Source of the DNA: Peptococcaceae bacterium
GTDB taxonomy: Bacteria; Bacillota; Desulfitobacteriia; Desulfitobacteriales; Syntrophobotulaceae
Assembly (NCBI GenBank): GCA_009782825.1
Contig: WRII01000027.1
Coordinates: forward strand, 1 to 37,376
Direction of reading: 5' to 3'
Length of the DNA: 37,376 nt
The position numbers were made by a program, and so were the translations under genes. The notes under the pieces are model-generated. The model saw only the letters and a program-made list of their open reading frames with translations, did no database searches and was not told where the DNA came from. Positions 17,131 to 33,713 of the stretch are shown in pieces. Position 1 is the stretch's first letter. Every line of letters begins with the position of its first letter.

Positions 17131-17823
17131 ATGAACCTCCAAGAGAGGCTTAGCCCGATCTCTCAAGTTATCGTCGCTCTCGACGTAGACAACATTGCCC
17201 GCGCCCATGAACTTGCCCGTTTACTGCAAGGAACAGGCTGCTGGTTAAAAATCGGCATGGAACTTTACGCTCTGAGCGGTATCAGCCTGATTGATGAGTT
17301 CAAAAGTCTTGGTTTTCATATTTTCCTTGACCTCAAGCTCCACGATATTCCCACCACAGTGGAGCGAACGCTGCGTGTCCTCGCGGCTTCGGGCGCCGAT
17401 ATGATCACTGTTCATTGTCTGGGAGGGTATGATATGATGGCCCGGGCCGCTGATGTCTGTCACCAAGCGGACACACTTCTCATGGGTGTGACTGTCCTTA
17501 CCAGCATGGATGAAAAGCATCTGGCCGATATTGGCGTAACGCAGGACATAGACAACCAAGTCGTTCATCTTGCTCAGTTGGCTCACCGGGCCGGACTTGA
17601 CGGAGTTGTGGCCTCAGCTCACGAAGTGCCAAATCTGCGCAAGCAGCTAACCGAATTCCTTTTGGTGACGCCAGGTATCCGTCCCGCCGGCAGTGAAACC
17701 AACGACCAAGCGCGAGTCTTAACCCCACAAGCCGCTTTAGATGCCGGCAGTTCCTACCTTGTTGTCGGGAGACCCATTACGCAGTCACCTGATCCGAGAC
17801 AGGCTCTGTTAAGTTTATTTTAA
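17131..17823 (+). CDS. pyrF: Orotidine 5'-phosphate decarboxylase
   Basis: MNLQERL...VIVALDV...DLKLHDIPTTV...LLVTPGIRP matches the OMPdecase signatures (DxKxxDI, VTPGI). ATG at 17131. Its stop codon overlaps the stop codon of the convergent histidine kinase gene. Confidence 0.9.
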   Translation: MNLQERLSPISQVIVALDVDNIARAHELARLLQGTGCWLKIGMELYALSGISLIDEFKSLGFHIFLDLKLHDIPTTVERTLRVLAASGADMITVHCLGGYDMMARAADVCHQADTLLMGVTVLTSMDEKHLADIGVTQDIDNQVVHLAQLAHRAGLDGVVASAHEVPNLRKQLTEFLLVTPGIRPAGSETNDQARVLTPQAALDAGSSYLVVGRPITQSPDPRQALLSLF

Positions 17824-20789
17824 GTAAAATAATCGACATCCGCACCATCAATCAATGACACAGCCTCATCATACGCGCCGATTAAGACGTTTTGCAAGAT
17901 ATCCTCCACAGTATCTCCCACACGAGGCGTTTGAGTGAATTTTTGCAATTCGCCAACAGCTTTTTTTATCCTGACAGAATCCAAAACATCCAGTGCCACT
18001 TTTAACTCGGAAAGTTCCGCGTGCAGCACGTCTATATCTGGATTCCCTGTCTGATCAAGACCCATATCTTTGGTATGAGTCCTCGCCTGTGTGATCCCTA
18101 TGTTGATCGCATCGAGAAGGGTTTCTAACCCCTTGAAGAACGCATCGCTCCGGGAATGAACAAAATCCACCATTCCTTTTTCAGCTGCGTTCTCCAGCTC
18201 TTGAGCTGCCTCGGCAATCCCTTCGGCTCCGATGTTCCCTGCGGCACTCTTGATTCCATGAGCATATATTCTGTACAACGACAGATTTTCTGCCCTGAGA
18301 CATGCCTTCATTTCCTTGATTGTCTCAAGAGTATCTTTATAAAATGTAGTCAGGATCTTCAAGTAGCTTTGTATCGATCCGCCTGCTATCGCCACGCCCA
18401 CCTTGGTGTTCAGCCCGTCAATATTAATGTTCAGCCCATCAATATTAATATTCAGCCTGTCAACAGGGCAGCTTATGCCGGCGCGGATGTCATCTGGCGT
18501 CCGCTTTATCTGCTTTTCCGGCGGAAGCCATCTTGCCAGCATCATGTCCAGCTTAACAGTATCAATGGGTTTAGACAGAAAATCATTGAATCCATTCTCC
18601 AGAAACATCTTTTTTGTGCCCACAACCGCGTTGGCTGTCAGCGCGATAATCGGCAGGGATGTATAATACGGGTCTTTGCCACCCAGAGCTCTGATTTTTG
18701 CCGTAGCTTCCATGCCGTTCATTGCGGGCATCATATGATCCATGAAGATCAAATCATAACGCTCTCTTTTGAGTATTTCAATAGCCACCTTGCCGCTTTT
18801 GCACACATCCACCTGCATGCCATAAGGCTTGAGCAGCCCTTCGGCAACCTTCAAGTTCGTTTCAATATCGTCAACAATAAGGATTCTCGCCTGAGGCGCG
18901 GTAAAATTCACGACAGGTTCATGAGGGATGACCCTTTCTTCTGAGGCTGATGTCCTCACCGCACCTGAATTGCCTATGCCAAGGCTGGTGTCCTCCGGTC
19001 TGCCGATTAATCCTCCGGCGTGCTGGTATCCTCCGGCTGTGGTATGGGACACTTTGTTTAAGAAGTTGGCTACAGGCAAAGAATAAATGGGGGTGGTCAG
19101 GAGGCTGATATTATGTCCCGCAATGGCCTCCCCAAATTCCGCAATCAGCAAAAACTTGACCCCGGACTTATATCCTTCAGCGCTCTCAAGGTTCGCATAT
19201 TTTTCTTTGACCCTTTCATAGAGAACAGAGGCCAGGAAAACAAAAGAATACTTGCGGCTCATAATTTCGTCATAGAACTCAGCATCCGTGGAAATTGCCT
19301 TATAGGGAACGCCCAGACTTTCCATGGTCTGCACTATGGAGTGTCTGTAGAGTTCACGACGTTCATAAATCAAGACATTCTTTTCCTCCGGGTTTTCCAC
19401 GACCGCCATCTTTTGGTTCGATCTGACCTTCTGTGGCAGCGTCACAGTAAAAGTACTGCCTTCTCCATAGATAGAGTGAACCTCAATCGTTCCCCCCATA
19501 GCGTCAACTAAATTTCGTGTTATGGCCAGCCCCAACCCTGTCCCTTCGATGCCTTTATTGTCTACAAGATCCCCCCGAGTAAATTCATCGAACAGCTTCC
19601 CGATTTCTTCCTCTCTGATGCCTTTACCGCTGTCTTCGACAGTTATGATAAGAATAACTGTATTATCATGATCATCATGATAATCATCATGATCATCATC
19701 ATCATAACCACCATCATCATAACCACCATCATCACTGGGATTTGCCATCTCCTTGAGAATGGATAGGGAAACATATCCTCTTTCCGTATATTTTACGGCA
19801 TTGCTTAACAAATTCATCATGATTTGACGGATTCTTATAGCGTCCCCAAAAAGATCATTAGGAATGTCATTATCGACATTAACCACGAAGCGCAGCCGCG
19901 ACTCCAGGACCCTGGTTTTTATAATATTGACCACATCATTAACCAAAGAGGAGAACAAATAGTCTGCCGGAGCAATTTCCAGGTTGCCTGATTGAATTCT
20001 GGAAAAATCTAAAATATCATTGATGATCGACAATAAGGTAGACCCCGTGTGCTTAATGGTCAGAACATTTTCCTGGACATCCAGCGGAATACTTTTCCTC
20101 AGGGTCAGCTCCGACATGCCGATGATCGCATTCAGAGGGGTGCGCATCTCATGGCTCATTTTCGCTAAAAAAGCGGATTTCGCCTGATCCGCCCCTTTGT
20201 AATAGTGGGCTGCCGCCGCTTGATCCCTCGCCTCAATAATATTGGTCAGATCTCTGAAAATCACAAGGAGTCCGTCATTTTTGTCGCGTTCATATGTAAA
20301 CGGCGCAGCGCTTATCGCATAATGGCGCACCGTTCCCGTATCGCCAAGATCAAGGTTATCTTCAGATTCTTGGATTGCGCCCATGGCAAAAGCTTTCTGG
20401 AAAAGATCCTCCATATGGTCAAGCCACTCTTCGTCAGCAAAAACGGAAAAAATTTGCCTGAAGGGCTTATGGTGCAGAAACTCGGGGCTGGGTATGTTCA
20501 AAAGCGTTAAAAACGATTGGGTGGACAGAAGAAAATGTGCCGCGCTGTCAAGGAGGATAATCATATCCGGCGAATATTCCATGATAACTTGAAGGTGCTT
20601 TTCCTGTTTGGATTTTTCAGCAGTGACGACGGCACTGAGGGTTTCTTGGGCCATCATTATATTTTTATACGTCTCTACCAAATGCTCTGACGCTGCGAGT
20701 TGCCGGGTCAGTCTTCTATTTTCAAGCTCAAGCCGGGTGATTTCTTTAAGCAGGGTTTCCTTTTCCGGCCCCTCAAATTGTTCTGCCAT
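17820..20789 (-). CDS. Hybrid sensor histidine kinase: coiled-coil/PAS, HisKA, HATPase_c, degenerate receiver, receiver, Hpt
   Basis: H-box SHEMRTPLNAIIGM. N-box NLLSNAVKYT. G-box DSGKGI...GTGLGL. REC ILIVDDIETN...DLIFMDHMMPAMNG...IIALTANA. Hpt HGIKSAAGNIGAEG. The start is probably the ATG at 20789 (MAEQFEG; RBS aggag 8 nt upstream). A TTG-extended ORF to 20822 would run into the repeat element. There is an acidic DDGGYDDGGYDDDDHDDYHDDHD insertion between the N-box and G1-box. There is also a NINIDGL x2 repeat. Confidence 0.85.
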   Translation of the reverse strand: MAEQFEGPEKETLLKEITRLELENRRLTRQLAASEHLVETYKNIMMAQETLSAVVTAEKSKQEKHLQVIMEYSPDMIILLDSAAHFLLSTQSFLTLLNIPSPEFLHHKPFRQIFSVFADEEWLDHMEDLFQKAFAMGAIQESEDNLDLGDTGTVRHYAISAAPFTYERDKNDGLLVIFRDLTNIIEARDQAAAAHYYKGADQAKSAFLAKMSHEMRTPLNAIIGMSELTLRKSIPLDVQENVLTIKHTGSTLLSIINDILDFSRIQSGNLEIAPADYLFSSLVNDVVNIIKTRVLESRLRFVVNVDNDIPNDLFGDAIRIRQIMMNLLSNAVKYTERGYVSLSILKEMANPSDDGGYDDGGYDDDDHDDYHDDHDNTVILIITVEDSGKGIREEEIGKLFDEFTRGDLVDNKGIEGTGLGLAITRNLVDAMGGTIEVHSIYGEGSTFTVTLPQKVRSNQKMAVVENPEEKNVLIYERRELYRHSIVQTMESLGVPYKAISTDAEFYDEIMSRKYSFVFLASVLYERVKEKYANLESAEGYKSGVKFLLIAEFGEAIAGHNISLLTTPIYSLPVANFLNKVSHTTAGGYQHAGGLIGRPEDTSLGIGNSGAVRTSASEERVIPHEPVVNFTAPQARILIVDDIETNLKVAEGLLKPYGMQVDVCKSGKVAIEILKRERYDLIFMDHMMPAMNGMEATAKIRALGGKDPYYTSLPIIALTANAVVGTKKMFLENGFNDFLSKPIDTVKLDMMLARWLPPEKQIKRTPDDIRAGISCPVDRLNINIDGLNINIDGLNTKVGVAIAGGSIQSYLKILTTFYKDTLETIKEMKACLRAENLSLYRIYAHGIKSAAGNIGAEGIAEAAQELENAAEKGMVDFVHSRSDAFFKGLETLLDAINIGITQARTHTKDMGLDQTGNPDIDVLHAELSELKVALDVLDSVRIKKAVGELQKFTQTPRVGDTVEDILQNVLIGAYDEAVSLIDGADVDYFT

Positions 20790-20805
20790 AGATACATCTC
20801 CTAAA

Positions 20806-20846
20806 GCGGGCTGCACCCGCAAGTGGTCAGCGATCAGTGGTTAGGG
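20806..20846 (-). ncRNA. Intercistronic repeat element, copy 3 (GCGGGC-tgca-CCCGC hairpin plus heptamers), immediately upstream of the histidine kinase RBS
   Basis: The sequence gcgggctgcacccgc-aagtggtcagcgatcagtggttaggg is read directly. It lies between the radical SAM gene and the histidine kinase, both on the minus strand. Confidence 0.6.
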
Positions 20847-20928
20847 ACTTGTAAGCGCAGGCAATATTCGCAGCGATTACCCTCTATATTTTGGCTCGTA
20901 GTGGACAATTATAATTATCCATTATTTT

Positions 20929-21801
20929 CTATTCGAATAATTTCAGTTGGGCAGCGCTATTTTCCCTTGCATAGGAAGGCATTTCACCCGAAATATCATA
21001 TGTCTTGCAGCTGGTTATAAAAGCGGATTTGAGTTTTTTGTACTGTGGCGATGTGCAGTGATAATAATTCTTGTAACGATTTATGTATTTCTTTCTTAAC
21101 TCCTCGTTGATGTGATTATAGAAATAGGTTCTTTGCCGGTCTCGCAATGTGACGGAAAAAGAGGGATAGACAAAACTCGCTCCAGCTATTTTGGCGTGCT
21201 TCACAATATTAACGATATTTTCTTCGTTGTCGGTTAGATAAGGAAGCGTCGGCATAATGACAACACCGGCTCTGATGCCCATAACAGAGAGGATGCCCAT
21301 AGCTTTGAATCTCTCGCTGGGCAGCGGGGCATGGGGTTCTATGGTTTTGGCTAAAGTATCATCTGCTGTTGTGATTGTGAAGGCGACACACGCGTAATTT
21401 TGTGTGTTGATTTGACTGAGTATTTCTGTGTCCCGTATCACGAGGTTGCTCTTTGTTAACAGAAACAGAGGGAATCGAAATTCTTTGATGACTTCTAAGG
21501 CCTGTTTGGTTAACTCGTACTTCTTTTCAATAGGAACATAGGGGTCGCTTGCCGAGCCAAATCCGATTGTTTCTCTATATCTTTTACGAGATAATTCTTT
21601 CCTCAAGAGCTGTATGGCGTTTGTCTTGACAGAAATAGAAGTGTCAAAATCATCTATATGATAGCACTCTGACCGTGTGTCGCAATAAATACATCCGTGC
21701 ATGCACCCCCGGTAGATATTTAAATAGTATTTGACTCCAAACCAGGAGCTGGGGTGTTTGTTCGTGATTAAAAGGCGTTTGGCTTCGATTTCATTGATCA
21801 T
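20929..21801 (-). CDS. Radical SAM protein of the SplB / DNA-repair-photolyase-like family (COG1533-like)
   Basis: The segment YRGCMHGCIYCD gives a CxxxCxxC cluster near the N-terminus. It is 290 aa, consistent with the spore-photoproduct-lyase-like radical SAM fold. Confidence 0.65.
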   Translation of the reverse strand: MINEIEAKRLLITNKHPSSWFGVKYYLNIYRGCMHGCIYCDTRSECYHIDDFDTSISVKTNAIQLLRKELSRKRYRETIGFGSASDPYVPIEKKYELTKQALEVIKEFRFPLFLLTKSNLVIRDTEILSQINTQNYACVAFTITTADDTLAKTIEPHAPLPSERFKAMGILSVMGIRAGVVIMPTLPYLTDNEENIVNIVKHAKIAGASFVYPSFSVTLRDRQRTYFYNHINEELRKKYINRYKNYYHCTSPQYKKLKSAFITSCKTYDISGEMPSYARENSAAQLKLFE

Positions 21802-21882
21802 AGAATGATTGTATCTTACCGGCTAAGCAAGGGGCAAGAGAAATTTATGAAATATATAGCGCATGGCTTTTGTCGCTTCCCC

Positions 21883-22977
21883 TTAAAATCTTCTCGCTTT
21901 TTCTTTATGCGACAGTGCAATCTCCTGAAACTGATCCGCAACACCCAAAAATAACTCCACACAGTCCGGGTCAAAGTGTGTCCCTTTCCCGTCAACAATA
22001 ATGTCTCGGGCTTCCTGATGAGCAAAAGCTTTTTTATACGGCCTGGCCGAAACCAGGGCGTCATAGACATCAACAAGGGCCATCATCCTGCCCAGCAGTG
22101 GAATCTCCCTGCCTTTTAATCCCTTCGGATATCCGCTCCCATCCCATTTTTCATGATGTGTTCCAACCAATACCTTGGCATAGTCCAAAAACGCGTGCTC
22201 GGTTGTATTTTTTTTGATCCTTTCAATGATTTCTTCGCCGAAAGTCGTATGTCCCTTAATAATCTCAAATTCCTCCGGGGTCAATTTACCTGGCTTTTGC
22301 AGAATCGCATCCGGGGTGGCAATTTTTCCCACATCATGGAGCTGTGACGATTGCAGAACAAGATCCATATCCCACAAGGAGGTTTCTTCCGGATACAGTC
22401 CCTGTTCCAGCAGCTCCCCTAAGAGAACCTTCAAGTAGCTTTGGGTTCTATCGATATGCGCTCCGGTCACATCATCCCGATACTCCACCAGTTCCGCCAT
22501 GGTTTTTAACACAGCATTTTGCAGTTCCACAACTGTTTCCGTCTTCGTGTCAACCATAGCCTGAAGGTTATTATTGAAATGGATGAGTTCCTGTTTTTGC
22601 GATTCGACCAGAAGATGAACTTCAATGCGCTTGAGCAGCAGGGGAGGGGAAAAGGGTTTGGTGATATAATCAATGGCCCCTAACGAAAGCCCTGTGAGTT
22701 CGCTTTTGCTGTCACTTTTTCCTGTCAGGAAGATCACAGGGATGTGACGGGTTTCCGGCTTCGCCTTGATATGCTGTATGGTCTCATATCCGTTCATTTC
22801 CGGCATCTCCACATCTAAAAGAATAAGATCCGGAATATGCCTGTCCAGTATTTTTAAAAGCCGCGGCCCGGAGTTCAGCGAAAAAACATTGTAGAAGTCG
22901 GAAAGTGTGTCGTTGCCTATTGTTAAGTTGGTCATATTGTCATCTACAAGAAAAATGGTCTTTCGATCTGTTTCCAT
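21883..22977 (-). CDS. Response regulator with HD-GYP phosphodiesterase output domain (c-di-GMP hydrolase type)
   Basis: The REC domain has FLVDDN...LILLDVEMPEMNG...IFLTGKSD, with the phospho-acceptor Asp in LLDVEMP. The HD-GYP motifs are HDVGK and HHEKWDGSGYP. The RBS aagggagag is present. Confidence 0.85.
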   Translation of the reverse strand: METDRKTIFLVDDNMTNLTIGNDTLSDFYNVFSLNSGPRLLKILDRHIPDLILLDVEMPEMNGYETIQHIKAKPETRHIPVIFLTGKSDSKSELTGLSLGAIDYITKPFSPPLLLKRIEVHLLVESQKQELIHFNNNLQAMVDTKTETVVELQNAVLKTMAELVEYRDDVTGAHIDRTQSYLKVLLGELLEQGLYPEETSLWDMDLVLQSSQLHDVGKIATPDAILQKPGKLTPEEFEIIKGHTTFGEEIIERIKKNTTEHAFLDYAKVLVGTHHEKWDGSGYPKGLKGREIPLLGRMMALVDVYDALVSARPYKKAFAHQEARDIIVDGKGTHFDPDCVELFLGVADQFQEIALSHKEKARRF

Positions 22978-23085
22978 TGCGGCTCTCCCTTATCTATCTG
23001 GATTCTCTCTCTAGCATAGACTGTTAGGCGCAAAAATATTTGTGTTCATGGAAGTTGATGCTTTACAAGTTCCAAGTCGTTCAAT

Positions 23086-23120
23086 TGGAAGGAACGAGAG
23101 GATTGTGATAAAATGGGTTT
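23086..23120 (+). promoter_or_regulatory. Candidate promoter of the RT operon (-35 TTGGAA, extended -10 TGTGATAAAAT)
   Basis: Read directly ~60 nt upstream of the first gene's ATG. The spacing is about 18 nt. Confidence 0.3.
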
Positions 23121-23180
23121 TAGATTTGCGACGCTATTGGGGAAAATACGACACTTGGCAGTCAGGGGAGGCAGGAACAT

Positions 23181-26042
23181 ATGTCAGGATTATTCCGCAA
23201 ATTTTTCAACTTTTTAAGATCCCTATTCAAAGGTAAAACCCGGTCGGATCATACCGGGCCTGGCGGCACAGACATATCACACACAACAGACACTCTTGAT
23301 AACGCTGACACAGACCGGCTCAGCTCAAGCAGCGGCCCCACACGGATCTACAAGCGTGACGCGCACCCTTTAAGAAAAATATACTTATGGGGCTGGGATC
23401 AAGACAACAATCCCAGCTTTCTCGTGCTGTACGGTGTCCATGAATTTAAAAGCACAGGCCCTCGCGGCAACGTTCTCAAGGAGGATGTGCGCTATACGGA
23501 TTATGCGATTTTTAAAGGCCGGGACGGACATTTTCCTTCCTTTGAGGCTGTGAAAATTATTGAGACACGGGAAAACCGCGCTCATGTCAGGCGCATGTAC
23601 TATAAGAAGGATGTGGAAGGCGTTTGTTATTGGAGCCAGACCAAAAAGGAGACCATGTTAACCTGCTTTAAGACATTAGGCAAGGGCTCCCCAGTCTCTT
23701 TCCCATACTTCCAGCAGATGACTCATGAAGCTTATGTCCATAGCCTGGAAAAACTCCCTGTAACATTTGATAAGTTCAGGCTCGCGAGAACCCCCAGCGA
23801 CGTTCTGCAGCCGGAACCTGGGCTGGCCCCCTATACGGAAACCCTCTGTACTCTTTTGAGCCACCCCAATCTCTATATCCGAAAAAAACATCTGCGTGAC
23901 CTTCTTCTGTCGAACCCGCCAAGAGAATTGTACACGTTCCTGATCCGAGTTGGAAGCAATGAGCTGATTTCCGGCCTGTTCTTGGAACTCAGCCGGCTGA
24001 GAAATGATGTCTTGGTCAGTGAAGCGAAAGCGATGCTGCAGGAGGAAATCACATGGGTCAGCGGCAGGTATTTGGAAGGTCTGAAGAGATGTGCCGCTCT
24101 CTATGTTACTGTTTTTGACAAAGACGCCCGTGAGGCCAGGACAGCTTATCTGCGGCAGACCCTGCTCAAGGGGCCGATAGCCAAGAGTTCGTTATGCGAA
24201 GGTTCAATAAATGAGAATATCAATGGTGTCAACATGATCTCCGCCGACATGATTAATACCGTGAAAGCTATCCTGCAAGAAGCGGAGATCTACGGCTTGG
24301 CTGATGTGATCGGGAAGACCGCTTACGAGTTGGATGCTCCTGAGCTGACGCACCTTTTCAAGAACAGCGGCAAAAGCAAGGCCCTCATATATTTGAGACG
24401 GTACGCCCGGCGCATTATGGATGCTTATGCTGTTCATGATGAAGCGAGGTTCGTGGCAGCTATGAAGACACTTTTTATAAGCTACACTGTTAAGGATTAT
24501 CTGAGCAAATTTCCCGGGAATTTTCAAGACAATTATTTTATCAGACACTACTTATATGCCTTTCAGCGTGAGATCTGGGCGCGGCATGTGGATGACCTCA
24601 TTGAGATTCTAGCCGAAGCAAAGGTTCCTGTTGTGGCCAAAGCCTTCTACTCTCTGCTGAAAGAGTGTGTGAACACGGAATATCTGACGCAGGAAGTCCC
24701 TTACGAAAAACTCTTGCGGCTCATTGGCTCTCCCTATTCAGGTGCGGCGGATATGTTTATGCAAATCTTAGCCCGGAAGCTGGCAGGGGAAGAGCAGTTC
24801 GACAGCACCCTTATGCTTCAATTCTTCCACGGCTCCCATCTGAACACTGATCAGGTTCGGGCGAAAATTCATGACATGGCCATGGCCTATTTTGACCGAA
24901 CCGGAGGCAGGCTTTCTCCTCAAGGGGTGATGACCTTGATGTTTGTCCCCGACAGGGATGAATGGCTCGACATGCACCGTCAAAACCTGGAAGCTTTTGA
25001 TCGTGACGAGTATGTGGCGTTTTTGCATGCGTTGATCCGGCATGTGGCCACAGCCACTTCTCCCGGACGGGGAGGGCGGACCGCTGCCGCCACTTTTGGC
25101 TTGGGCATGACAGAGAATCACCAACAGATACTGATTCAGTCTTTAGGCAAGCTGGCGCCGGTTTCCCGGCCGCAAATGACCGGCTTAATATCCGCGGTCA
25201 CAGACCTCTTACGCCGGAGCAAAAAACTGCCGGATACTCTATATCCCTTCTTGGAAGCCCTTGTTTTAGCCGGGCCAATGACTCAGCCATTGGATAAACT
25301 GAGGAATCTTCTGCCGTCCGTAGATATTTGGGGGAATCAGCACACCCAAAATGTTCAAGGCAGGAACCTCTTCCTCCTTTCTCTCCTGCACGCCGTCAAA
25401 ACAGACACCCTTCCTTCCGACACCACTCTGTCGGACATGCTGGAACTCGATTCGGCCCCTATGATGAACACCTTGATTCAAGTCATCGCCTTCCGGCAGG
25501 CTCTGCTCAGTTCAAGATTTTCTACAGTACTGATCCTTCTGGAGTCCGATATCCCTCCCGTGCAGGGGATTGCTCAAGACGTTTTCAACACCCTGCCCCC
25601 AAGAGAGCAAAAACAGCTCCACGCCCTCATCCTCGATTCCCCTGACCAGAAGGTCTCTGAGTATGGCCTGCACAAATTGCGCGACCTTTATGAACAGCCC
25701 GGAGCCCTGATCCCGGAGGATCTCCTCCTAAGACTGCTCGAACACCCCTCTCGTAACGTCAAATCCTATATTGCCGGCAAATTAACGGACATTATCAAAA
25801 CCTTGGGCAACGGCAGCACAGAAGTGTTCATGTACTATGCCAGAACCCTTCTCCTGCTCCCCAACCGGATCTCCCAAGCCAAAAACACCCTCTATGACGT
25901 TTTTCCCGCCTTTGTCAAAGCCCATCCGGACCGCCAATCCGAAGTAGAATCTCTGCTGCTGGATATTGGCGGCTCCAACATTATCTTAGATGCCGAACGG
26001 GCGTTGATGGCCCTGGCCAAAATCAGAAGGGAGGTCGCTTAG
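23181..26042 (+). CDS. Large (953 aa) predominantly alpha-helical (HEAT/ARM-like repeat) protein of unknown function. First gene of the RT-associated operon
   Basis: RBS gggaggcagg then ATG. The N-terminal ~180 aa are a mixed region (KIYLWGWDQDNNPSFLVLYGVHEF...). The rest is long Leu-rich helical repeats. I can read no catalytic motif. Its stop TAG overlaps the next gene's ATG (gcTTAGATGc). Confidence 0.6.
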   Translation: MSGLFRKFFNFLRSLFKGKTRSDHTGPGGTDISHTTDTLDNADTDRLSSSSGPTRIYKRDAHPLRKIYLWGWDQDNNPSFLVLYGVHEFKSTGPRGNVLKEDVRYTDYAIFKGRDGHFPSFEAVKIIETRENRAHVRRMYYKKDVEGVCYWSQTKKETMLTCFKTLGKGSPVSFPYFQQMTHEAYVHSLEKLPVTFDKFRLARTPSDVLQPEPGLAPYTETLCTLLSHPNLYIRKKHLRDLLLSNPPRELYTFLIRVGSNELISGLFLELSRLRNDVLVSEAKAMLQEEITWVSGRYLEGLKRCAALYVTVFDKDAREARTAYLRQTLLKGPIAKSSLCEGSINENINGVNMISADMINTVKAILQEAEIYGLADVIGKTAYELDAPELTHLFKNSGKSKALIYLRRYARRIMDAYAVHDEARFVAAMKTLFISYTVKDYLSKFPGNFQDNYFIRHYLYAFQREIWARHVDDLIEILAEAKVPVVAKAFYSLLKECVNTEYLTQEVPYEKLLRLIGSPYSGAADMFMQILARKLAGEEQFDSTLMLQFFHGSHLNTDQVRAKIHDMAMAYFDRTGGRLSPQGVMTLMFVPDRDEWLDMHRQNLEAFDRDEYVAFLHALIRHVATATSPGRGGRTAAATFGLGMTENHQQILIQSLGKLAPVSRPQMTGLISAVTDLLRRSKKLPDTLYPFLEALVLAGPMTQPLDKLRNLLPSVDIWGNQHTQNVQGRNLFLLSLLHAVKTDTLPSDTTLSDMLELDSAPMMNTLIQVIAFRQALLSSRFSTVLILLESDIPPVQGIAQDVFNTLPPREQKQLHALILDSPDQKVSEYGLHKLRDLYEQPGALIPEDLLLRLLEHPSRNVKSYIAGKLTDIIKTLGNGSTEVFMYYARTLLLLPNRISQAKNTLYDVFPAFVKAHPDRQSEVESLLLDIGGSNIILDAERALMALAKIRREVA

Positions 26043-27821
26043 ATGCAAGTTACTTATCAATACGCCGGTCCCTCCAAGCTTGTGCGGCATCCCGATCATG
26101 TTACTTTCGGCATGAGCCCGGATCTGTCGCGAGAAGAAAAGGTCTCCTTTGTGGGGAAGTTGAAAAATCCCCTCATCTTTCGGGACGCCATGCTCATGCT
26201 CAGAAAAATTATTGTGTCGGATGCCCGGCAGAAAAAAAAGGAACGCACAGAATTTTTCCAATGGCTGAACGGGGAAATTGAGAGACGCATACAAGAACAC
26301 GAACAGGATCTGCCCGGCGTCAGAGACGCCCTGCAGCAGGAGATCGAAGCTTTGCTCCAGGACATGGCCGGCAAAGACACGGCTCTGGCCCAGCTTGTCA
26401 AAACTCGCAAAAAGATTAGCCAAGAGATAGAAAAGTCCGACGCCTGGCGCGACTATCATAAGCTGGAAAAAAAGTTTTGGCAGTTTATCCGCGACCGGGA
26501 CAGAGACTTATGGTTCGTCCTTGATCCTGTGATCACGGTGCATCCGGATCAAGTTTCCTTTGAAGCCTTCTCTCTGGATGAATCCATATACGGCTGTCTG
26601 TCTATAGGCATGGATGAATTTGATCTGCGCGCCGAACCCAAGCTGGGTACGACCAACATTGACTTTTCCGCCAAACTCGCTCAGGAAATGGAACGGTTTC
26701 GCACCTACTCAGATGTGGAACTCTCTGTGAACCCGGAAGGATTCACCGTAGATACAGGCATCCTTCCCGACTATATCGAAAAGAAAATTGACCTGCCTGA
26801 TACATGGATCAAAGGCTTCACCCAAGTTTCGTCAGCGGCCAATCTAAGCGGCGCAGAGATCTCTTTGACTCCGGTGGATATGTATGACATCTGTTCCTTT
26901 TTGCGGCGGCATAAGGCCCAAAAGAGCCCCAGGCATATGACATGGATTCTGAAAAAAGACCACCCTGTAACAGTACGCTTTGAGCCCTTTGGTCACGAAC
27001 TCACGTTACAGGCGATTTACCACGGCGACAAGGACAGGGAAGAAAAAATATGGGGCCGGCAGCGCTGGCTTGTGGCTGAGAAGCTTCTCCCTCTGGCCAA
27101 GTCCTTTACTGTCAAGCTATTGGGGTTTGGTATGCCTCAGTTTATCATCGCAGATTTAGGAAATATGAACATGACCATCGGCTTTTCTTCCTGGTCCGCC
27201 AACGACTGGGTTAAAGGAACAGCTTTTAACATTATGAGCGGCTTCATCGGAGAAGGGAACTACAGAGAAGTTTATGCCCTGCTCAAACAAAAACGCTCCA
27301 TGACGGTAAACGACATCTGCAGCCAGATCCAATCCCGCACACGAAACACAACCCTTTCCGGTATCGGCAGCCTGCTCAAGCGGGGAGAAGGGTACTTTGA
27401 CGCTGTCAATACCCAGGTACGCTTCCGCCAGCTGTGCAATACCCCCATCCCGCAGGAACTGTACGCCACAACGGAAGCGGAACTCCGAGTGACAAGGTGT
27501 TTGGATGCCGGGATGGATCTTTTCCGTATGAGGCTGTCAGAAAAGAATGAGTATGTTTTTACGAATTCCTATTTGGACAGAGATCCGCTGCGAACACAGC
27601 ACAAGGCACAGCATGAGACAGAAATCATGATTGATGAAGACGGTCAGATTGGTCGTGTGGTATGCTCATGCAAAGAATTCAAAAGAGGGCCGCGCAATAT
27701 CTCCGCACCATGCCCCCATATTTTAGCCCTATACATCACCGCCGCGAAATTCACCCGGCTCAGGCTGGAGCAGGGGAGAGTGTATGGGATCAATGATATT
27801 ATGGAGGTGGTGCTATCATGA
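26043..27821 (+). CDS. 592-aa protein with a C-terminal SWIM-type zinc finger. Second gene of the RT-associated operon
   Basis: RBS gggagg. The C-terminal VVCSCKEFKRGPRNISAPCPHILALY gives the CxC...CxH SWIM pattern. Its stop overlaps the RT start (ATGA). Confidence 0.65.
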   Translation: MQVTYQYAGPSKLVRHPDHVTFGMSPDLSREEKVSFVGKLKNPLIFRDAMLMLRKIIVSDARQKKKERTEFFQWLNGEIERRIQEHEQDLPGVRDALQQEIEALLQDMAGKDTALAQLVKTRKKISQEIEKSDAWRDYHKLEKKFWQFIRDRDRDLWFVLDPVITVHPDQVSFEAFSLDESIYGCLSIGMDEFDLRAEPKLGTTNIDFSAKLAQEMERFRTYSDVELSVNPEGFTVDTGILPDYIEKKIDLPDTWIKGFTQVSSAANLSGAEISLTPVDMYDICSFLRRHKAQKSPRHMTWILKKDHPVTVRFEPFGHELTLQAIYHGDKDREEKIWGRQRWLVAEKLLPLAKSFTVKLLGFGMPQFIIADLGNMNMTIGFSSWSANDWVKGTAFNIMSGFIGEGNYREVYALLKQKRSMTVNDICSQIQSRTRNTTLSGIGSLLKRGEGYFDAVNTQVRFRQLCNTPIPQELYATTEAELRVTRCLDAGMDLFRMRLSEKNEYVFTNSYLDRDPLRTQHKAQHETEIMIDEDGQIGRVVCSCKEFKRGPRNISAPCPHILALYITAAKFTRLRLEQGRVYGINDIMEVVLS

Positions 27822-29386
27822 GACAAGAACACTATCGAGCTGTCCATGATATGGGAAAAAAAGAATATACCCTGCTCAAAATGCAGGAATACGGCTTTTG
27901 GCCGGAAGATCTGCCGACGCCCTATGAAAGGCAAGCGCACGAATCCGCGCAAGACTACAACAAGAGACAAGCCCTCTTCAAGGAATATGAGCAGATCGCT
28001 GGTCGGATAGCCAATTTGTATAGTGAGAAAGACGAGATCAATACCCGGTTAAAAGACTTACGGAAACACTATGATCAGACATGGGATTATGAAAAGATAA
28101 GGAAAGACGTCGCCCAAACCATCCTGCGGGAATCCCTGGCCCGGCGCGCGGAAAGAAAACGACAGAAAGAACTTCAGAAGCAAAGGATCTCTGAAGCCTG
28201 GCAAAAACGCAAGGCCGAAAGTATTGTTTTCATTGGCCGGGGCTATTCGGGGCTGCTCTCTGATAAGACCGGCGACGCGGACAAACTGCGCGCCTCCAAT
28301 CTGCCCCTCATCCCTGACGATAAAGCCCTAGCCGCTCTTCTTGGCCTTACGTATACAGAGCTGCGTTTTTTGGCCTATCACAGAGATGTGGTTGTGGCCG
28401 ATCATTACCACCGGTACGAGATTCCTAAAAAGAATGGCGGACACAGACGTATTGCCGCGCCAAAGCCGCTGCTCAAAAAGACCCAAAGAAAGATCTTGGA
28501 ACTCATATTGGAGAAAATAGATATCTCGGAACAGGCTCACGGGTTCGTGAAAGGGCGATCTGTAGTCACCGGCGCTCAAGCTCATAAAACTCATATCGGA
28601 AATCCTTCGCTGCTGATCACTCTCGACCTGGAAGATTTCTTTCCCACCATTACTTTTGAGCGCGTCCGAGGCCTTTTTAAATCTTTTGGCTATTCAGGGT
28701 ATATTGCCTCACTTTTGGCTATGATATGCACCTATTGCGAACGCGTGCCCATTGAAGTCAAAGGTCAGATCAAATATGTACGATCCTCTGAGAGAATCCT
28801 CCCGCAAGGATCCCCGGCCAGCCCCATGATTACAAATATCATCTGCCGCAGGATGGACGCCAAGATCAGAGACCTCGCCACGAACTTCCCGTCCGGCCAC
28901 CCTGTCCAGTCCGGTCACCCTGCCCAGTCCGGTCACCCTGTCCAATCCGGTCACCCTGCCCAAACAAATTCCCCTGCGAGCTGCCGGTGTACATATACAC
29001 GGTACGCCGATGATATGAGCTTTAGCTTTGACAGCACCTTGCCCATAGACGCGGAACACATCAAAAAATTCATCCACCAAATTCAGCGCATCGTCCACAG
29101 CGAAGGTTTTAAAATTAATAAACAGAAAACACGCTATCTAAAACACAACAACAGACAAGCCGTCACTGGCATTGTCATTAATAATGAAGAGATCTCTGTT
29201 CCCAAGGTATGGCTCAAAAAGATGAGAGCGGCCCTCTATAATGCCAAAAAGCAAAAAGAACAGGGGACTCTTGATCCCGGCAAAATACATGAGATAGCCG
29301 GCATGGCCTGCTGGTTGAACTCCGTGAATCCCACCAAGTACAAAAAAATGATTGATGAAGCCAAGGATTTGCAAAGCTCGTCTTAG
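27818..29386 (+). CDS. Reverse transcriptase of retron/retron-like type with a ~190-aa basic coiled-coil N-terminal extension
   Basis: RT motifs are in order: IPKKNGGHRRIAAP (1/2), GFVKGRSVVTGAQAH (retron-type NAxxH-like box), LDLEDFFPTI (A), LPQGSPASPMITN (B'), YTRYADDMSF (C), and NRQAVTGIVINNEE plus LKKMRAALYNAK (the retron-specific RxVTG(L/I)xVN thumb motif). A 4x SGHP(V/A)Q repeat insertion sits between motifs B' and C. The RBS ggaggtgg is present. Confidence 0.85.
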   Translation: MRQEHYRAVHDMGKKEYTLLKMQEYGFWPEDLPTPYERQAHESAQDYNKRQALFKEYEQIAGRIANLYSEKDEINTRLKDLRKHYDQTWDYEKIRKDVAQTILRESLARRAERKRQKELQKQRISEAWQKRKAESIVFIGRGYSGLLSDKTGDADKLRASNLPLIPDDKALAALLGLTYTELRFLAYHRDVVVADHYHRYEIPKKNGGHRRIAAPKPLLKKTQRKILELILEKIDISEQAHGFVKGRSVVTGAQAHKTHIGNPSLLITLDLEDFFPTITFERVRGLFKSFGYSGYIASLLAMICTYCERVPIEVKGQIKYVRSSERILPQGSPASPMITNIICRRMDAKIRDLATNFPSGHPVQSGHPAQSGHPVQSGHPAQTNSPASCRCTYTRYADDMSFSFDSTLPIDAEHIKKFIHQIQRIVHSEGFKINKQKTRYLKHNNRQAVTGIVINNEEISVPKVWLKKMRAALYNAKKQKEQGTLDPGKIHEIAGMACWLNSVNPTKYKKMIDEAKDLQSSS

Positions 29387-29401
29387 AATGTTAAAATTAG
29401 G

Positions 29402-29600
29402 GCATAGGTTTTTTGGCAGGTATGCTATGGTGTTGCGCCATAGTTGAGGAATGTTATGTATACATCACCAAATTGTGCGCAATTCGCTTCGCATCGACTA
29501 ATGGCGCCTTAAAATCTATCCTACGGTGTAGGCGCCATTAGTCGAGCTCCGCTGAAGTGTCACAATTAGATGAGAGATCTTTTAGCAAAAAACCTATGAG
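29402..29600 (+). ncRNA. Candidate retron msr/msd-like non-coding RNA downstream of the RT. The a1-like arm is 29403-29416 and the a2-like arm 29585-29598. The central 15-bp perfect hairpin is 29494-29508 / 29531-29545
   Basis: cataggttttttgg pairs with gcaaaaaacctatg (12 contiguous bp plus 2). Between the arms, tcgactaatggcgcc-N22-ggcgccattagtcga forms a perfect 15-bp stem. A further hairpin is ctatggtgttgcgccatag. No ORF spans the region. Confidence 0.35.
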
Positions 29601-29760
29601 ATAGGGGCTGTTGCCAGCCTCTTCAATCATTGATGAAGGTCTGAGGATATGATGGAAAAATTGAGAGATCTGCCCTTTCAGGTCATTGTCACGGATCAAC
29701 AGAAAGCAGACATTGAGGATGACTCTGAAGATGGAGAAGAGGTTAATTTGGAGGGGTTTG

Positions 29761-30198
29761 ATGTGGAAATATGAAGCAGTCAATGAATACAATACAATCA
29801 GCTTGCATGATTGCTATATAATGCATATTGATGAGCAAGATGGCAATATTATATTCAGCTTTGAACGTGGATTTTGGATTATTGAAACCAACAACAAAAA
29901 CCCTTTTCACAAGACTTTAAGAACTGAGGATGGGGCTAAACTCACACTCACAAATGCTAATTGTGTTGAAATTCTTTTCGAAGATAAAAATATCAGTTGG
30001 CATGAGTTTTGTCGAAGAATTAATGCTGACGAATGGAAATTTGAGTGTATTCATGATAATTATACAGCAAATCAATGCGCCTACGAAGGTTGGATTTACT
30101 TTGACAAAGAACCTTATCATATGGAGTTAGGCCTAAAGTTTACTTTTGGTGACGCAATATACCATTGGAATGAAATCTGTGAGAATAGGCCGTGGTAG
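29761..30198 (+). CDS. Hypothetical 145-aa Cys/His/Trp-rich protein in an AT-rich tail
   Basis: Strong RBS tggagggg 4-6 nt before the ATG at 29761. The annotated ORF from 29686 has earlier ATGs without an RBS. Local GC is much lower than in surrounding genes. No recognisable motif. Confidence 0.4.
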   Translation: MWKYEAVNEYNTISLHDCYIMHIDEQDGNIIFSFERGFWIIETNNKNPFHKTLRTEDGAKLTLTNANCVEILFEDKNISWHEFCRRINADEWKFECIHDNYTANQCAYEGWIYFDKEPYHMELGLKFTFGDAIYHWNEICENRPW

Positions 30199-30632
30199 TG
30201 TTTACACACTAAAAGTATTTTCCATACTTCAAATCGCTCATTAATATAGGCACCCCAACGAAACAGATTAACTCCTATATTCATTGCTGATTCATATCTC
30301 TCATGGATATAAACGACCATTATCTGTCACTTCCAAAAGTAAAGTCTTATGCATCTTCTCGAATCTCGCCTCGTGCCCACACTGTGATGGTATCATGAGC
30401 CGTCAGAAGAACAGAATATTTTCTTCCTTGGATTTCCAATTGAGGCGGAACGAGGCAGAAACGATTCCATTCAATCCATTATTTATAAAACTTCCATTAC
30501 CCAGTACGGGCTACTCTCCGTAGACCATGTTTCACAAAATGCTTTAACAGCGGGTAACAAATCCTCTATTCCAACGCAATGTTTCTTAAGTTTTCCGCTT
30601 ACATTTTTAGGGTAATGAATTGACGTGTTATA

Positions 30633-31742
30633 TCATTCCCCATATCCCATCAGTCCTCGGACAGACACCTCACTTGCATTTAACGCCAAAGTCTCTCCTG
30701 TGGGAAGCTGCACAATCAATTCTCCGGCAGGGTTGAGGGCAACAGCTCGTCCGCAAATCTCTTTATTGTGGTAAATCGCCTTGATCTCCCGGCCCAAAGT
30801 TACACAGTTGTCTTGGTAAAGAGGAAGAATATCCGTGACAAATTTATGCCGTATAAGGAGATCATACAGAGGTTCAAAACAATTGAGAATAGCAGCAGCC
30901 AAGGAAGTAAGTTGAAAAGTTTCAATTTGTTGAGATTTTTCAACCCGTGAATACGCTCTTTTTGTCTCTAGGAACAAAGAAGTCGCTGAATCCGCCAATT
31001 CCGGCGGAAATGAAGAAATATGCACATTGACGCCGATACCCACCACCAACGCTTTAATATGTTCAACCTCAGCTGTCAGCTCTGTGAGAATTCCCGCAGC
31101 CTTCTTATTATTGAGAAGAATATCATTCGGCCATTTAATGACGGGTTGCAAAGCGGTATTGTGCAATGTGCGTTGCAGGTGATACTCTTCATCCGTTCCT
31201 TTGTACATTGCTTGCTGCATGGTCTGCTGCATCACCTGCTGCATCTCCTGCTGCATGGCCTGCTGCACGGCCAATCCGGCAGCCAAGGTCACTTGGGCCG
31301 CATTATTGATAGGAATCTCAGGACGCAGCAGGAGAGACATCATAAGACATGTATGCCGTGGAGCATACCAGGCACGACCCAGACGGCCCCGTCCCGCTGT
31401 CTGTTCCTGAGCGGCAAACACAGCTCCATGGACGGCCCCGTTTTCCGCCGCATGCAAAGCCTGCCGGTTGGTGGATTCGACACTTTCATAAAGAGTCAGG
31501 CTGCGGCCCAAATATTCAGTGGTCAACAGAGATTGCAGATCATCAGCCTGCAAAATATCCGGGCTGGCCGTGAGACGATAGCCCCGGTTTGTCACAGCTT
31601 CAATTGTATAACCATCCTCTTGCAAAGCCTTGATTGTTTTCCAGACAGCAGAGCGAGTCACCTCCAGGACACGGCTGATGTCCGCCCCAGAGATAAAACT
31701 GTCCGGTTTTTGGCGCAAAAGAAAGAGCACATCATCTTTCAT
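30633..31742 (-). CDS. birA: Bifunctional biotin--[acetyl-CoA-carboxylase] ligase / biotin operon repressor
   Basis: N-terminal wHTH (ISGADISRVLEVTRSAVWKTIKALQ). The ligase core has the biotin-binding motif QTAGRGRLGRAW and KWPNDILLNNKKAAGIL. C-terminal SH3-like domain. An in-frame MQQ(x)MQQ pentad repeat insertion (QQAMQQEMQQVMQQTMQQAM) is encoded by 12-bp repeats at ~31195-31262. Confidence 0.9.
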   Translation of the reverse strand: MKDDVLFLLRQKPDSFISGADISRVLEVTRSAVWKTIKALQEDGYTIEAVTNRGYRLTASPDILQADDLQSLLTTEYLGRSLTLYESVESTNRQALHAAENGAVHGAVFAAQEQTAGRGRLGRAWYAPRHTCLMMSLLLRPEIPINNAAQVTLAAGLAVQQAMQQEMQQVMQQTMQQAMYKGTDEEYHLQRTLHNTALQPVIKWPNDILLNNKKAAGILTELTAEVEHIKALVVGIGVNVHISSFPPELADSATSLFLETKRAYSRVEKSQQIETFQLTSLAAAILNCFEPLYDLLIRHKFVTDILPLYQDNCVTLGREIKAIYHNKEICGRAVALNPAGELIVQLPTGETLALNASEVSVRGLMGYGE

Positions 31743-31747
31743 ACACT

Positions 31748-32248
31748 CTATTTTTCCCTCTCAAAAACCGCGAAAGATTCTCCTATCATCCCTATCGTAT
31801 CTCCCTGGTAGTTCAACGCTCCTTCGGTGATTACAAAGGCAAACTGTTCAACTTCATCACCCAAAAATCCATAAAAATCTCTGGAACTCACCTTGCATTC
31901 TATTTTATCCCCATTACGGCTGTATGTCCCGTTGATATTGCCCATTCCTTCATAGAGATTTACAACCAACTCAAATGTCATATCTTCTTTCAAGATCAAT
32001 ACATTATAGTGTTCCAGTTTTGCAGAGTCGTTTTCCCTGAAAATCCATCTTCCAGTAACATCCTTGACGGTATCATTGTCCTGATTGTTCTGATTGTTCT
32101 GATCAGTATTATTCTGTTGGGAATTCGTCCGATCCGTATTATTGTTTTGTTCTAAAATAGTATTTGTAGTACATCCCGCCATAAAGAATACCGCCATAAC
32201 AACCACAGCCACAAACATCACGATCCATTTAACTTGACTTTTGTTCAT
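31748..32248 (-). CDS. Hypothetical lipoprotein with an Asn/Gln-rich linker, co-transcribed upstream of birA
   Basis: Signal peptide with lipobox-like FMAGC. Low-complexity NNTDRTNSQQNNTDQNNQNNQDN linker. The RBS aaggaagg is present. Its stop lies 5 nt before the birA start. Confidence 0.55.
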   Translation of the reverse strand: MNKSQVKWIVMFVAVVVMAVFFMAGCTTNTILEQNNNTDRTNSQQNNTDQNNQNNQDNDTVKDVTGRWIFRENDSAKLEHYNVLILKEDMTFELVVNLYEGMGNINGTYSRNGDKIECKVSSRDFYGFLGDEVEQFAFVITEGALNYQGDTIGMIGESFAVFEREK

Positions 32249-32436
32249 CTGTCTAACACCTTCCTTAAAATAATAGAAACCCTATCATACGTAAAATATA
32301 CTTAATATTTTGCATCTTAGCAAGATTTATAATACTCTCTTTTTGCATACCCCGGAACAGATGGCTGAAAGTGTTGACCAGATATATTCGCGACAAAAAC
32401 GAGGGAGGGAAGAGGGGGCTATAACCACAGACCACA

Positions 32437-32510
32437 AGGCAGGGCTGCAGAGCTATGACCACACTGCAGGGCACCTGCAGGGCTATGACCATTGCAGGGC
32501 TATGACCACT
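32437..32510. repeat. Intergenic tandem repeat (unit ~GCAGGGCTATGACCA, 3-4 copies) upstream of wecB
   Basis: Read directly: gcagagctatgaccacact / gcagggcacct / gcagggctatgaccatt / gcagggctatgaccact. Confidence 0.75.
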
Positions 32511-32585
32511 CGCCAAATCCCATCATATGATGTACAATAGAGACGTGTAAAAACATTACGCAGAATTGACAGAAAGGCTCAGATC

Positions 32586-33713
32586 ATGTCAGAAAAAAAA
32601 AGAATCATGAGCGTCTTTGGAACCCGCCCCGAAGCCATTAAAATGGCGCCGCTGGTTCAAGCCTTGCATGGCCATCCTCAGATTGAAAGCTTGGTCTGCG
32701 TCACCGGTCAACACCGGGATATGCTGGATCAAGTGCTCACCATTTTCTCCATCACCCCCGATATCGATCTGAATATCATGCGTTTCAATCAAGATCTCAC
32801 TTCCATTACCACACGAACCCTAGAAGGATTAGCGCCGGTTTTAGCCGAATATCAACCTGATTTGATCCTCGTCCACGGAGATACCACCACATCAGTCTCC
32901 GCAGCCCTGGCAGCCTTCTACCAGAAAATCCCTGTCGCTCATGTGGAAGCCGGGCTGCGCTCCCAGGATCCATATTCCCCGTTCCCTGAAGAAATGAACC
33001 GCTGCCTGATCAGCCGTCTGGCCCGGCTGCACTTTGCGCCCACAGAGTCCAATGCCAACAACTTACGGCAAGAACATATCCAAGGTCTGATCGAAGTCAC
33101 CGGGAACACCGTCATTGACGCGCTGCTCTCTATGGTCTATGATGCCTACACATTCCAACACCCCCTTCTGAGTGACTTCAATTTTGCCGCAGGCCCTGCC
33201 ATTTTGCTGACAGCCCACCGCCGGGAAAACTTCGGCCAGCCGATTTACAACATATGCCAAGCTGTGCGGCGCCTGCTCCAAGACCATCCCTCTTTGCGGG
33301 TTATCTATCCGGTTCATCCCAATCCGCAAATCCAGGAACCCGTCAGAGACTATCTGGAAGGCGTTCAACGCCTCAATTTGATTGCTCCGCTGGACGTCCA
33401 AGAGATGCACAATCTGATGGCCCGCTGCACCTTTGTGATGACAGATTCCGGCGGACTGCAGGAAGAAGCCCCCGCTTTAGGCAAGCCCGTTCTCGTTCTC
33501 CGCACGGAAACAGAGCGCCCGGAAGCCGTTGCGGCGGGAACTGTCGAAGTCGCCGGAGTCGAGGAAGAAAAGATCTATCAATCAGCCCACGCCCTGTTAA
33601 CAGACCCGCAGAAATTTGACCGGATGGCCATGGCCGTTAACCCTTACGGAGACGGTCATGCCTGTGAGCGCATCGTGGCCTGTATTGAAAAATGGGCTGG
33701 TATTCGAACCTGA
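32586..33713 (+). CDS. wecB: UDP-N-acetylglucosamine 2-epimerase (non-hydrolysing)
   Basis: The N-terminus VFGTRPEAIKMAPL, and the segments HGDTTT and HVEAGLRS, are hallmark Epimerase_2 motifs. 375 aa. Confidence 0.9.
   Translation: MSEKKRIMSVFGTRPEAIKMAPLVQALHGHPQIESLVCVTGQHRDMLDQVLTIFSITPDIDLNIMRFNQDLTSITTRTLEGLAPVLAEYQPDLILVHGDTTTSVSAALAAFYQKIPVAHVEAGLRSQDPYSPFPEEMNRCLISRLARLHFAPTESNANNLRQEHIQGLIEVTGNTVIDALLSMVYDAYTFQHPLLSDFNFAAGPAILLTAHRRENFGQPIYNICQAVRRLLQDHPSLRVIYPVHPNPQIQEPVRDYLEGVQRLNLIAPLDVQEMHNLMARCTFVMTDSGGLQEEAPALGKPVLVLRTETERPEAVAAGTVEVAGVEEEKIYQSAHALLTDPQKFDRMAMAVNPYGDGHACERIVACIEKWAGIRT

Follow-up and report, generated by a model that had tools for sequence, protein, structure and literature searches.

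A probable type XIII retron of the Bacillota with an msr-msd RNA gene downstream of its operon

The stretch of DNA analysed here (the window) is the 37,376-nucleotide (nt) contig WRII01000027.1 of a Peptococcaceae bacterium (assembly GCA_009782825.1). On its plus strand it carries three adjoining genes, which encode a large helical protein (open reading frame 1, ORF1), a SWIM zinc-finger protein (ORF2) and a reverse transcriptase (RT, ORF3), and these are followed by a noncoding RNA (ncRNA). Judged from its sequence, the locus is very probably a complete and functional type XIII retron of a Bacillota subgroup, consisting of a three-gene operon and a separately transcribed ncRNA downstream. The initial annotation had proposed an undescribed RT-based system with partners in no known retron effector class, and had taken pairs of SWIM and large helical proteins to be unlinked to reverse transcription. 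These claims do not hold, since an RT, a SWIM protein and a WGR-like/HEAT-ARM protein together define type XIII (Mestre et al. 2020, NAR 48:12632, PMC7736814). Going by profile matches and gene content, the system is one already catalogued, to which the window adds another example.

Assignment to type XIII and the msr-msd RNA

According to Mestre et al., type XIII combines a clade-10 retron RT with a protein of cluster 114_1, which has a DEDE motif, a winged helix and a C-terminal SWIM finger of the form CxCx12CxH, and usually with an upstream WGR-like/HEAT-ARM protein; Mx162, Mx65, Sa163 and Ne144 are included in it (PMC7736814). This definition fits the window gene for gene. PADLOC describes the type by four models (RT_XIII, SWIM_XIII, WGR_XIII and HEAT-ARM_XIII), and all three proteins are matched: ORF3 by RT_XIII (E = 5.4e-151, 501.8 bits, against 255.9 bits for the next retron RT profile), ORF2 by SWIM_XIII over amino acids (aa) 1-567 (E = 4.2e-174) and ORF1, over part of its length, by WGR_XIII (E = 5e-16), with a faint match to HEAT-ARM_XIII. 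By its RT_XIII score, ORF3 is assigned to the clade-10 retron RTs of Mestre et al.; ORF2 has the DEDE motif, winged helix and terminal SWIM finger of cluster 114_1, and ORF1 is an upstream protein of the WGR-like/HEAT-ARM kind (clusters 216, 259, 1688 and 3262).

That the third gene encodes a retron-type RT, as first proposed, is borne out by the match to Pfam RVT_1 (E = 6e-24) and, in the translation, by the YADD motif, the region-X box GAQAH (of the NAxxH type) and the region-Y VTG triplet in RQAVTGIVIN, regions X and Y being those by which retron RTs are recognized. The best PADLOC, NCBIfam and Protein Data Bank (PDB) matches are all retron RTs, and the nearest solved structures in the PDB sequence search are the RTs of retrons Ec86 and Ec67 (E about 1e-27 to 5e-28). 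An in-frame tandem repeat encodes four SGHP(V/A)Q units that are missing from the homologue consensus and from all homologues examined; because this insertion interrupts ORF3 relative to the consensus, the PADLOC RT match is split. The identical RT protein is on record from a Peptococcaceae metagenome-assembled genome (MAG) and several metagenome assemblies, with the same neighbourhood. Some RT homologues carry an additional domain: P0030, P0050, P0058 and P0071 (loci L077 and L018) end in a TerD domain (PF02342) and reach about 700-725 aa, and P0066 has a BRCT domain (PF00533).

The tight translational coupling described in the initial annotation is confirmed by coordinates and junction sequences. 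The ATG of ORF2 directly follows the TAG stop of ORF1 (GGGAGGTCGCTTAGATGCAA, ribosome-binding site GGGAGG), ORF2 and ORF3 overlap by the 4 nt ATGA (GGAGGTGGTGCTATCATGAGA, ribosome-binding site GGAGGTGG), and GGGGAGG precedes ORF1, so that a purine-rich Shine-Dalgarno sequence is found at all three starts.

Gene order is conserved well beyond the window. A scan of one genome per species, with partner genes located by tblastn, gave 80 related loci; their sources are Clostridium, Lachnospiraceae, further Bacillota and a small number of contigs binned as Asgard archaea. The SWIM gene lies immediately 5' of the RT gene in 77 of the 80, and an ORF1 homologue 5' of the SWIM gene in 71; contig ends explain eight of the nine misses, and in the ninth (L021) a different ORF of 502 aa occupies the ORF1 position. 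Going by these gene neighbourhoods, the linkage of RT, SWIM and helical genes is not a matter of chance.

Two observations on these loci are worth recording in their own right. In Oceanirhabdus seepicola (L008:4428-5816), the ORF1 and SWIM genes are separated by an inserted insertion-sequence (IS) ORF of 462 aa, whose C-terminal zinc-finger region is TnpB-like. Near-complete type XIII retrons are found on the Asgard-binned contigs L021, L026, L051, L064 and L082 (Hermod-, Prometh-, Thor- and Lokiarchaeota), with RTs 52-55% identical to that of the window; these could reflect horizontal transfer or binning contamination.

The downstream non-coding region, which the initial annotation had set apart for attention, is relevant: it encodes the msr-msd ncRNA. 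Starting 17 nt past the RT stop codon, a 13-bp inverted repeat (CATAGGTTTTTTG as arm a1, pairing with arm a2) encloses a short and a long hairpin, so that the parts of a retron RNA are all present, namely the a1/a2 duplex, an msr hairpin, a conserved G where a1 ends and a long msd stem-loop (Table 1). Many relatives have this layout 3' of their RT genes too, and its sequence is highly conserved. The fold has a minimum free energy of -77.4 kcal/mol (z = -4.9). An alignment of 19 sequences yields 53 consensus pairs, and compensatory changes are seen in 33 of these; the covariance model built from it finds a single copy in the window (191.8 bits, E = 2e-43). Double changes occur in 41 of the 53 pairs. 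In a set of 88 distinct sequences, pairing holds in 94.9% of cells; sliding the partners by 1-3 columns lowers this to 34-45%, and shuffling lowers the covariation score from 0.614 to 0.19. T29414, G29415 and G29416 are invariant in the alignment, as is TAGCA at 29583-29587; G29415 closes the a1/a2 stem and G29416 is left unpaired, in the geometry that a retron branching guanosine has. G.U pairs account for 25% of the msr hairpin, 16.5% of helix 3 and 0.4-2.3% of helices 4-6. We assign the stem 29491-29547 as the msd because a near-absence of G.U pairs is expected if a stem must also pair as DNA, and the same figures support the view that its DNA copy would pair. A minus-strand ncRNA was considered, since that strand also folds well (z = -6.5). 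It was rejected: the plus strand is the one that agrees with the covariance model, with the placing of the msr first, with the G.U pairs and with the promoters upstream.

The covariance model detects the ncRNA in 65 of the 80 related loci. In 34 of these it lies 3' of the RT gene and on the same strand, as in the window; the other 31, mostly from Lachnospiraceae, have it 5' of ORF1 and on the opposite strand, where co-transcription with the RT is impossible. Because of these 31 loci, we regard the ncRNA as an independent transcription unit, probably transcribed separately from the RT and acting in trans. Clear promoters (TTGACA / TGnTATAAT) precede the ncRNA copies of relatives, and hairpin terminators follow many of them. 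In loci L034-L075 the copies lie at about 2900-3300 on the minus strand, unlike the plus-strand copy of the window, each with its own strong promoter.

The ncRNA matches no Rfam family. Table 1 of Mestre et al. 2020 lists an ncRNA class 'XIII (Firmicutes/...)' (PMC7736814); one 2026 preprint calls the type XIII ncRNA unidentified, which conflicts both with that table and with the RNA at 29401-29600. The antiphage retrons Retron-Eco1 (Ec86, type II-A) and Retron-Eco2 (Ec67, type I-C), whose RTs are the closest solved ones, have in common with the locus the logic of the RNA, with a1/a2 duplex, branching G and msd hairpin.

A further observation concerns copy number. Natural tandem arrays of two to six ncRNA genes stand beside a single type XIII operon at L035:2000-3312 (-), L075:1818-3193 (-), L054:2138-3177 (-), L052:2347-3315 (-), L039:2490-3149 (-) and L026:9469-10190 (+), and also in L049, L047 and L064. 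Copies in one array hardly differ in their a1/a2 arms, msr hairpin and helix 3; the sequence of the msd stem varies from copy to copy, with pairing preserved. The searched literature contained only engineered 'retron arrays' and no natural ones.

The window and the named type XIII retrons share the clade-10 RT with its N-terminal extension, the partner with winged helix and C-terminal SWIM finger (cluster 114_1), the preceding WGR-like/HEAT-ARM protein (cluster 216) and an msr-msd ncRNA, which in the window is of the 'XIII (Firmicutes/...)' class. They differ in that the window comes from Bacillota (a Peptococcaceae MAG) and not from a myxobacterium, its ORF1 is a divergent branch with a partial profile match, its ncRNA lies 3' of the RT gene with a promoter-like site of its own, its RT has the private SGHPxQ insertion, and its multicopy single-stranded DNA (msDNA) is predicted, whereas Retron-Mxa1 (Mx162), Mxa2 (Mx65), Sau1 (Sa163) and Nex2 (Ne144) are validated msDNA producers. 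Mx162, the first retron discovered, has its msr-msd directly upstream of the RT gene. As a catalogue entry the locus is ordinary, one that tools of the PADLOC kind would label retron type XIII, and its value is that of a compact and complete example, with promoter, three genes and a trans-encoded ncRNA in which a1/a2, a candidate branching G and the msd stem can be placed.

Table 1. Positions of the retron genes, signals and RNA parts in the window
Feature	Position	Strand	Size	Remarks
Operon promoter-like site	23085-23114	+		TTGGAA-18-TAAAAT, TG upstream; 67 nt 5' of ORF1 start; consensus scan, pattern match only
ORF1	23181-26042	+	953 aa	Type XIII accessory protein; N-terminal beta-rich domain (about aa 55-175), then long HEAT/ARM-like alpha-solenoid
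ORF2	26043-27821	+	592 aa	Type XIII primary associated protein (SWIM); N-terminal strands and long helices (aa 1-155), predicted PCNA-like double clamp (about aa 160-385), winged helix (about aa 405-465), C-terminal SWIM zinc finger
ORF3	27818-29386	+	522 aa	Retron RT, type XIII clade; conserved N-terminal extension of about 190 aa
Tandem repeat in RT gene	28887-28962	+	18 nt, 4.2 copies	In frame; encodes SGHP(V/A)Q x4 between RT motifs 4 and 5; Tandem Repeats Finder and repeat search
ncRNA promoter-like site	29369-29397	+		TTGCAA-17-TAAAAT, TG upstream; overlaps RT stop codon, ends 4-6 nt 5' of ncRNA; consensus scan
ncRNA gene (msr-msd)	29401-29600	+	200 nt	A short way downstream of RT gene
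a1	29403-29415	+		Pairs with a2
Candidate branching G	29416	+
msr hairpin	29424-29444	+
RNA-only helix	29471-29487 with 29551-29567	+
msd stem-loop	29491-29547	+
a2	29586-29598	+		Pairs with a1

Partner proteins and a proposed working

The description of ORF1 as a large HEAT/ARM-like helical protein is supported by its structural model, which has a long alpha-solenoid (predicted local distance difference test, pLDDT, 82), an N-terminal beta domain without a fold assignment and no predicted enzyme fold. WGR_XIII is matched by 29 of 30 ORF1 homologues. The suggested relationship to Pfam DUF4132 or WGR found no backing: neither family was matched by ORF1 at E<=0.1 or by 29 homologues at E<=0.01, and the WGR-like nature of the beta domain is not confirmed by Pfam. 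Searches of NCBIfam, PHROG and PDB sequences gave no match to ORF1. Pairs of WGR/DUF4132 (MolR/YehI-like) and SWIM (YehQ-like) proteins share with ORF1 and ORF2 the theme of a large helical protein beside a SWIM protein; with no DUF4132 or WGR match, homology between them is not demonstrated. Some ORF1 homologues on Asgard-binned contigs are fused to leucine-rich repeats (P0299, P0328 and P0330 are among the proteins flagged).

ORF2 was rightly recognized as a C-terminal SWIM protein: besides the SWIM_XIII match, it ends in C541-x-C543-x13-C557-x-H559, four residues that are invariant in 27 homologues, and Pfam SWIM scores 17.4 bits, just under its 19.6-bit threshold. The middle of the protein is predicted, with moderate confidence, to adopt a two-domain sliding-clamp fold, and two independent structure searches of the model had nothing but clamps among their top hits. 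The resemblance to PCNA, 9-1-1, beta sliding clamps and herpesvirus processivity factors is one of fold, at 5-17% sequence identity, with two predicted clamp domains and no sequence-level homology, and it is not put forward as family membership. Unlike those proteins, ORF2 joins its clamp-like domain to a winged helix and a SWIM finger, and its N-terminal region is long and helical. Clustered at 50% identity, the family of the clamp-like domain falls into about 700 clusters, most of which share the architecture of ORF2; no link of retrons to PCNA-like proteins was found in the searched literature. Here, too, lies the difference from Retron-Eco1 and Retron-Eco2, whose effectors are enzymatic (an NDT N-glycosidase and a fused Toprim nuclease, respectively), whereas a clamp-like/SWIM protein and a HEAT solenoid without a recognizable enzyme stand beside the RT in the window.

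We propose the following working. In the computed fold, a1 is paired to a2 and the invariant unpaired G29416 is placed beside the 3' end of the template. The RT would then prime on the 2'-OH of G29416, copy the RNA leftwards from about 29585 through the msd stem and stop before the msr hairpin, yielding a branched msDNA of about 100-140 nt with a DNA hairpin derived from 29491-29547; this step follows established retron biochemistry, and the scarcity of G.U pairs in the msd stem supports pairing as DNA. The RT-msDNA complex may next assemble with the HEAT-repeat scaffold and the SWIM protein, because the RT co-evolves with its accessory family (PMC7736814) and the PCNA-like, winged-helix and SWIM modules are of kinds that bind nucleic acid or protein. 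By analogy with other retron types, the complex would most likely act as a phage-sensing guard, in which a disturbance of the msDNA alters the activity of both partners. Since neither partner has a recognizable catalytic domain, an output by clamp-like binding or blocking of DNA appears more likely than the nuclease activity proposed in 2020.

It is tempting to extend this into a hypothesis for the whole type, which we put forward as a speculation with the odds against it. Type XIII retrons would not be toxin-antitoxin systems with an enzymatic effector; the SWIM partner, as a PCNA/9-1-1-like clamp with winged helix and SWIM finger, might recognize the msDNA hairpin or a DNA junction and, with the HEAT scaffold, load onto or block DNA such as phage replication intermediates, and in some lineages arrays of ncRNAs with different msd stems might supply distinct msDNAs to one RT. 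A direct role of the clamp-like protein as a DNA-encircling or junction-binding effector is just as doubtful. If the clamp reading is true, and there is no enzymatic effector, type XIII works differently from the retron types solved so far. The exact ncRNA gene and the lead to a clamp fold are the most useful additions made here, and two results sharpen future tests, namely that the ncRNA appears to be an independent unit whose position and strand vary by lineage and that the supposed nuclease core models as a sliding clamp.

Role in the host and rival explanations

Phage defence is, by a narrow measure, the role that we favour. All retron types tested so far have proved to be anti-phage, according to reviews, and PADLOC and DefenseFinder list type XIII as a defence system, without validation. 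Several points weigh against a type XIII defence retron working as proposed. ORF1 matches the accessory profile of type XIII weakly and over part of its length, and the exact G used for priming, like the points where the cDNA starts and ends, is one that we infer. Confidence in the ORF2 model is moderate (pLDDT 72.7), and it has disordered loops at aa 232-253, within the clamp region. No toxin-like enzymatic domain is detectable in either partner by Pfam, PADLOC or structure searches. The searchable literature yielded no experiment in which a type XIII retron was tested for phage defence, and the main text of a retron census preprint makes no mention of the type. The flanks are housekeeping genes. 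Finally, type XIII correlates moderately with host 16S (0.78), which suggests vertical inheritance and possibly a role outside defence (Mestre et al., PMC7736814).

The lack of an enzymatic effector and this hint of vertical inheritance are why we keep open a non-defence role, in which the system would be a domesticated, vertically inherited retron whose msDNA complex, clamp-like protein and HEAT scaffold serve host DNA metabolism or regulation. Mestre et al. suggested domestication for some retrons (PMC7736814), and the housekeeping flanks, the native base composition and a search of 2.9 M viral contigs, which held no relatives of the retron, are in line with it. Against this explanation stands, besides the record of the retron types tested and the listing of the type among defence systems, the finding that related loci show no synteny in the genes beside the retron. 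The rapid diversification of msd stems and the arrays of variant ncRNAs in some relatives also look like arms-race evolution. We consider domestication unlikely on balance, with phage defence the better supported of the two.

More doubtful still is the view that ORF2 is a DEDE nuclease effector, derived from IS256/Mutator transposases, in a toxin-antitoxin retron whose msDNA restrains a DNase. Its basis is an acidic motif, D161-x7-D169-x4-E174-x32-D207-x38-E246, in which the five residues are invariant in 27 homologues and which fits the pattern Dx7[D]x4Ex30-32Dx37E of Mestre et al. to within one residue (PMC7736814). These residues sit inside the clamp-like region, which in the model and both structure searches is a two-domain clamp and not an RNase H-like DDE fold. 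Furthermore, ORF2 matches no Pfam nuclease family and no PHROG, no nuclease fold was recognized, and the PDB sequence search returned coiled-coil noise only, with no solved nuclease or transposase among its matches.

There is very little left for an undescribed RT-based system, or for a defence-associated RT (DRT/UG). ORF1 and ORF2 are without a Pfam or NCBIfam family, and therefore standard annotation gives 'hypothetical protein', which lends the locus an appearance of novelty; yet the type XIII models and the published definition fit all three proteins, a canonical a1/a2 msr-msd RNA is present, and the NCBIfam DRT models score far below their cutoffs on ORF3 (Drt2 20.7 bits, cutoff 390; Drt3a 14.8, cutoff 200; Drt5 13.6, cutoff 550). 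A group II intron or diversity-generating retroelement is practically negligible as an explanation: weak RT-level similarity exists (63 bits to the group II intron equivalog TIGR04416, E = 4e-6 to the GsI-IIC RT), but the former lies far under its 300-bit cutoff, ORF3 has no maturase or endonuclease domain, an Rfam search of the window at E-value and gathering thresholds found no group II intron RNA or other family, and positions 20000-33000 hold no template/variable repeat pair and no direct repeat above 36 nt other than the tandem repeat within the RT gene. The initial annotation was thus right to set the RT apart from group II introns, and profile scores place it with the retron RTs.

Genomic surroundings and minor observations

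The retron lies among a hybrid histidine kinase, a radical SAM protein, a response regulator with an HD domain, birA, a UDP-GlcNAc 2-epimerase and a cdaA-ybbR-glmM block. The initial annotation had read this setting as an acquired defence island with an AT-rich, foreign-looking tail. An AT-rich stretch does exist (29601-30632, GC content 0.378), whereas the three retron genes (0.49-0.51) match the window mean of 0.491. An acquired island is not supported because composition is native, the flanks are housekeeping and signalling genes, the surroundings of the retron hold neither genes for an integrase or transposase nor flanking or att-like repeats, and relatives are missing from the viral contigs. 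A tRNA scan of the window found none, hence no tRNA-linked island boundary.

Between the ncRNA and birA, the AT-rich spacer contains an orphan ORF (29686/29761-30198, 145-170 aa) that recurs in each of the five metagenomic copies of the region and has no Pfam match above threshold and no PADLOC, NCBIfam or PHROG match. Its 170-aa form (29686-30198) was considered as a fourth component of the system and rejected, being absent from all 80 related loci. On the other side, the upstream hybrid histidine kinase (ORF 17820-20822, minus strand) has an acidic low-complexity insert, DDGGYDDGGYDDDDHDDYHDDHD, in its catalytic region, at 18700-18800 of the window.

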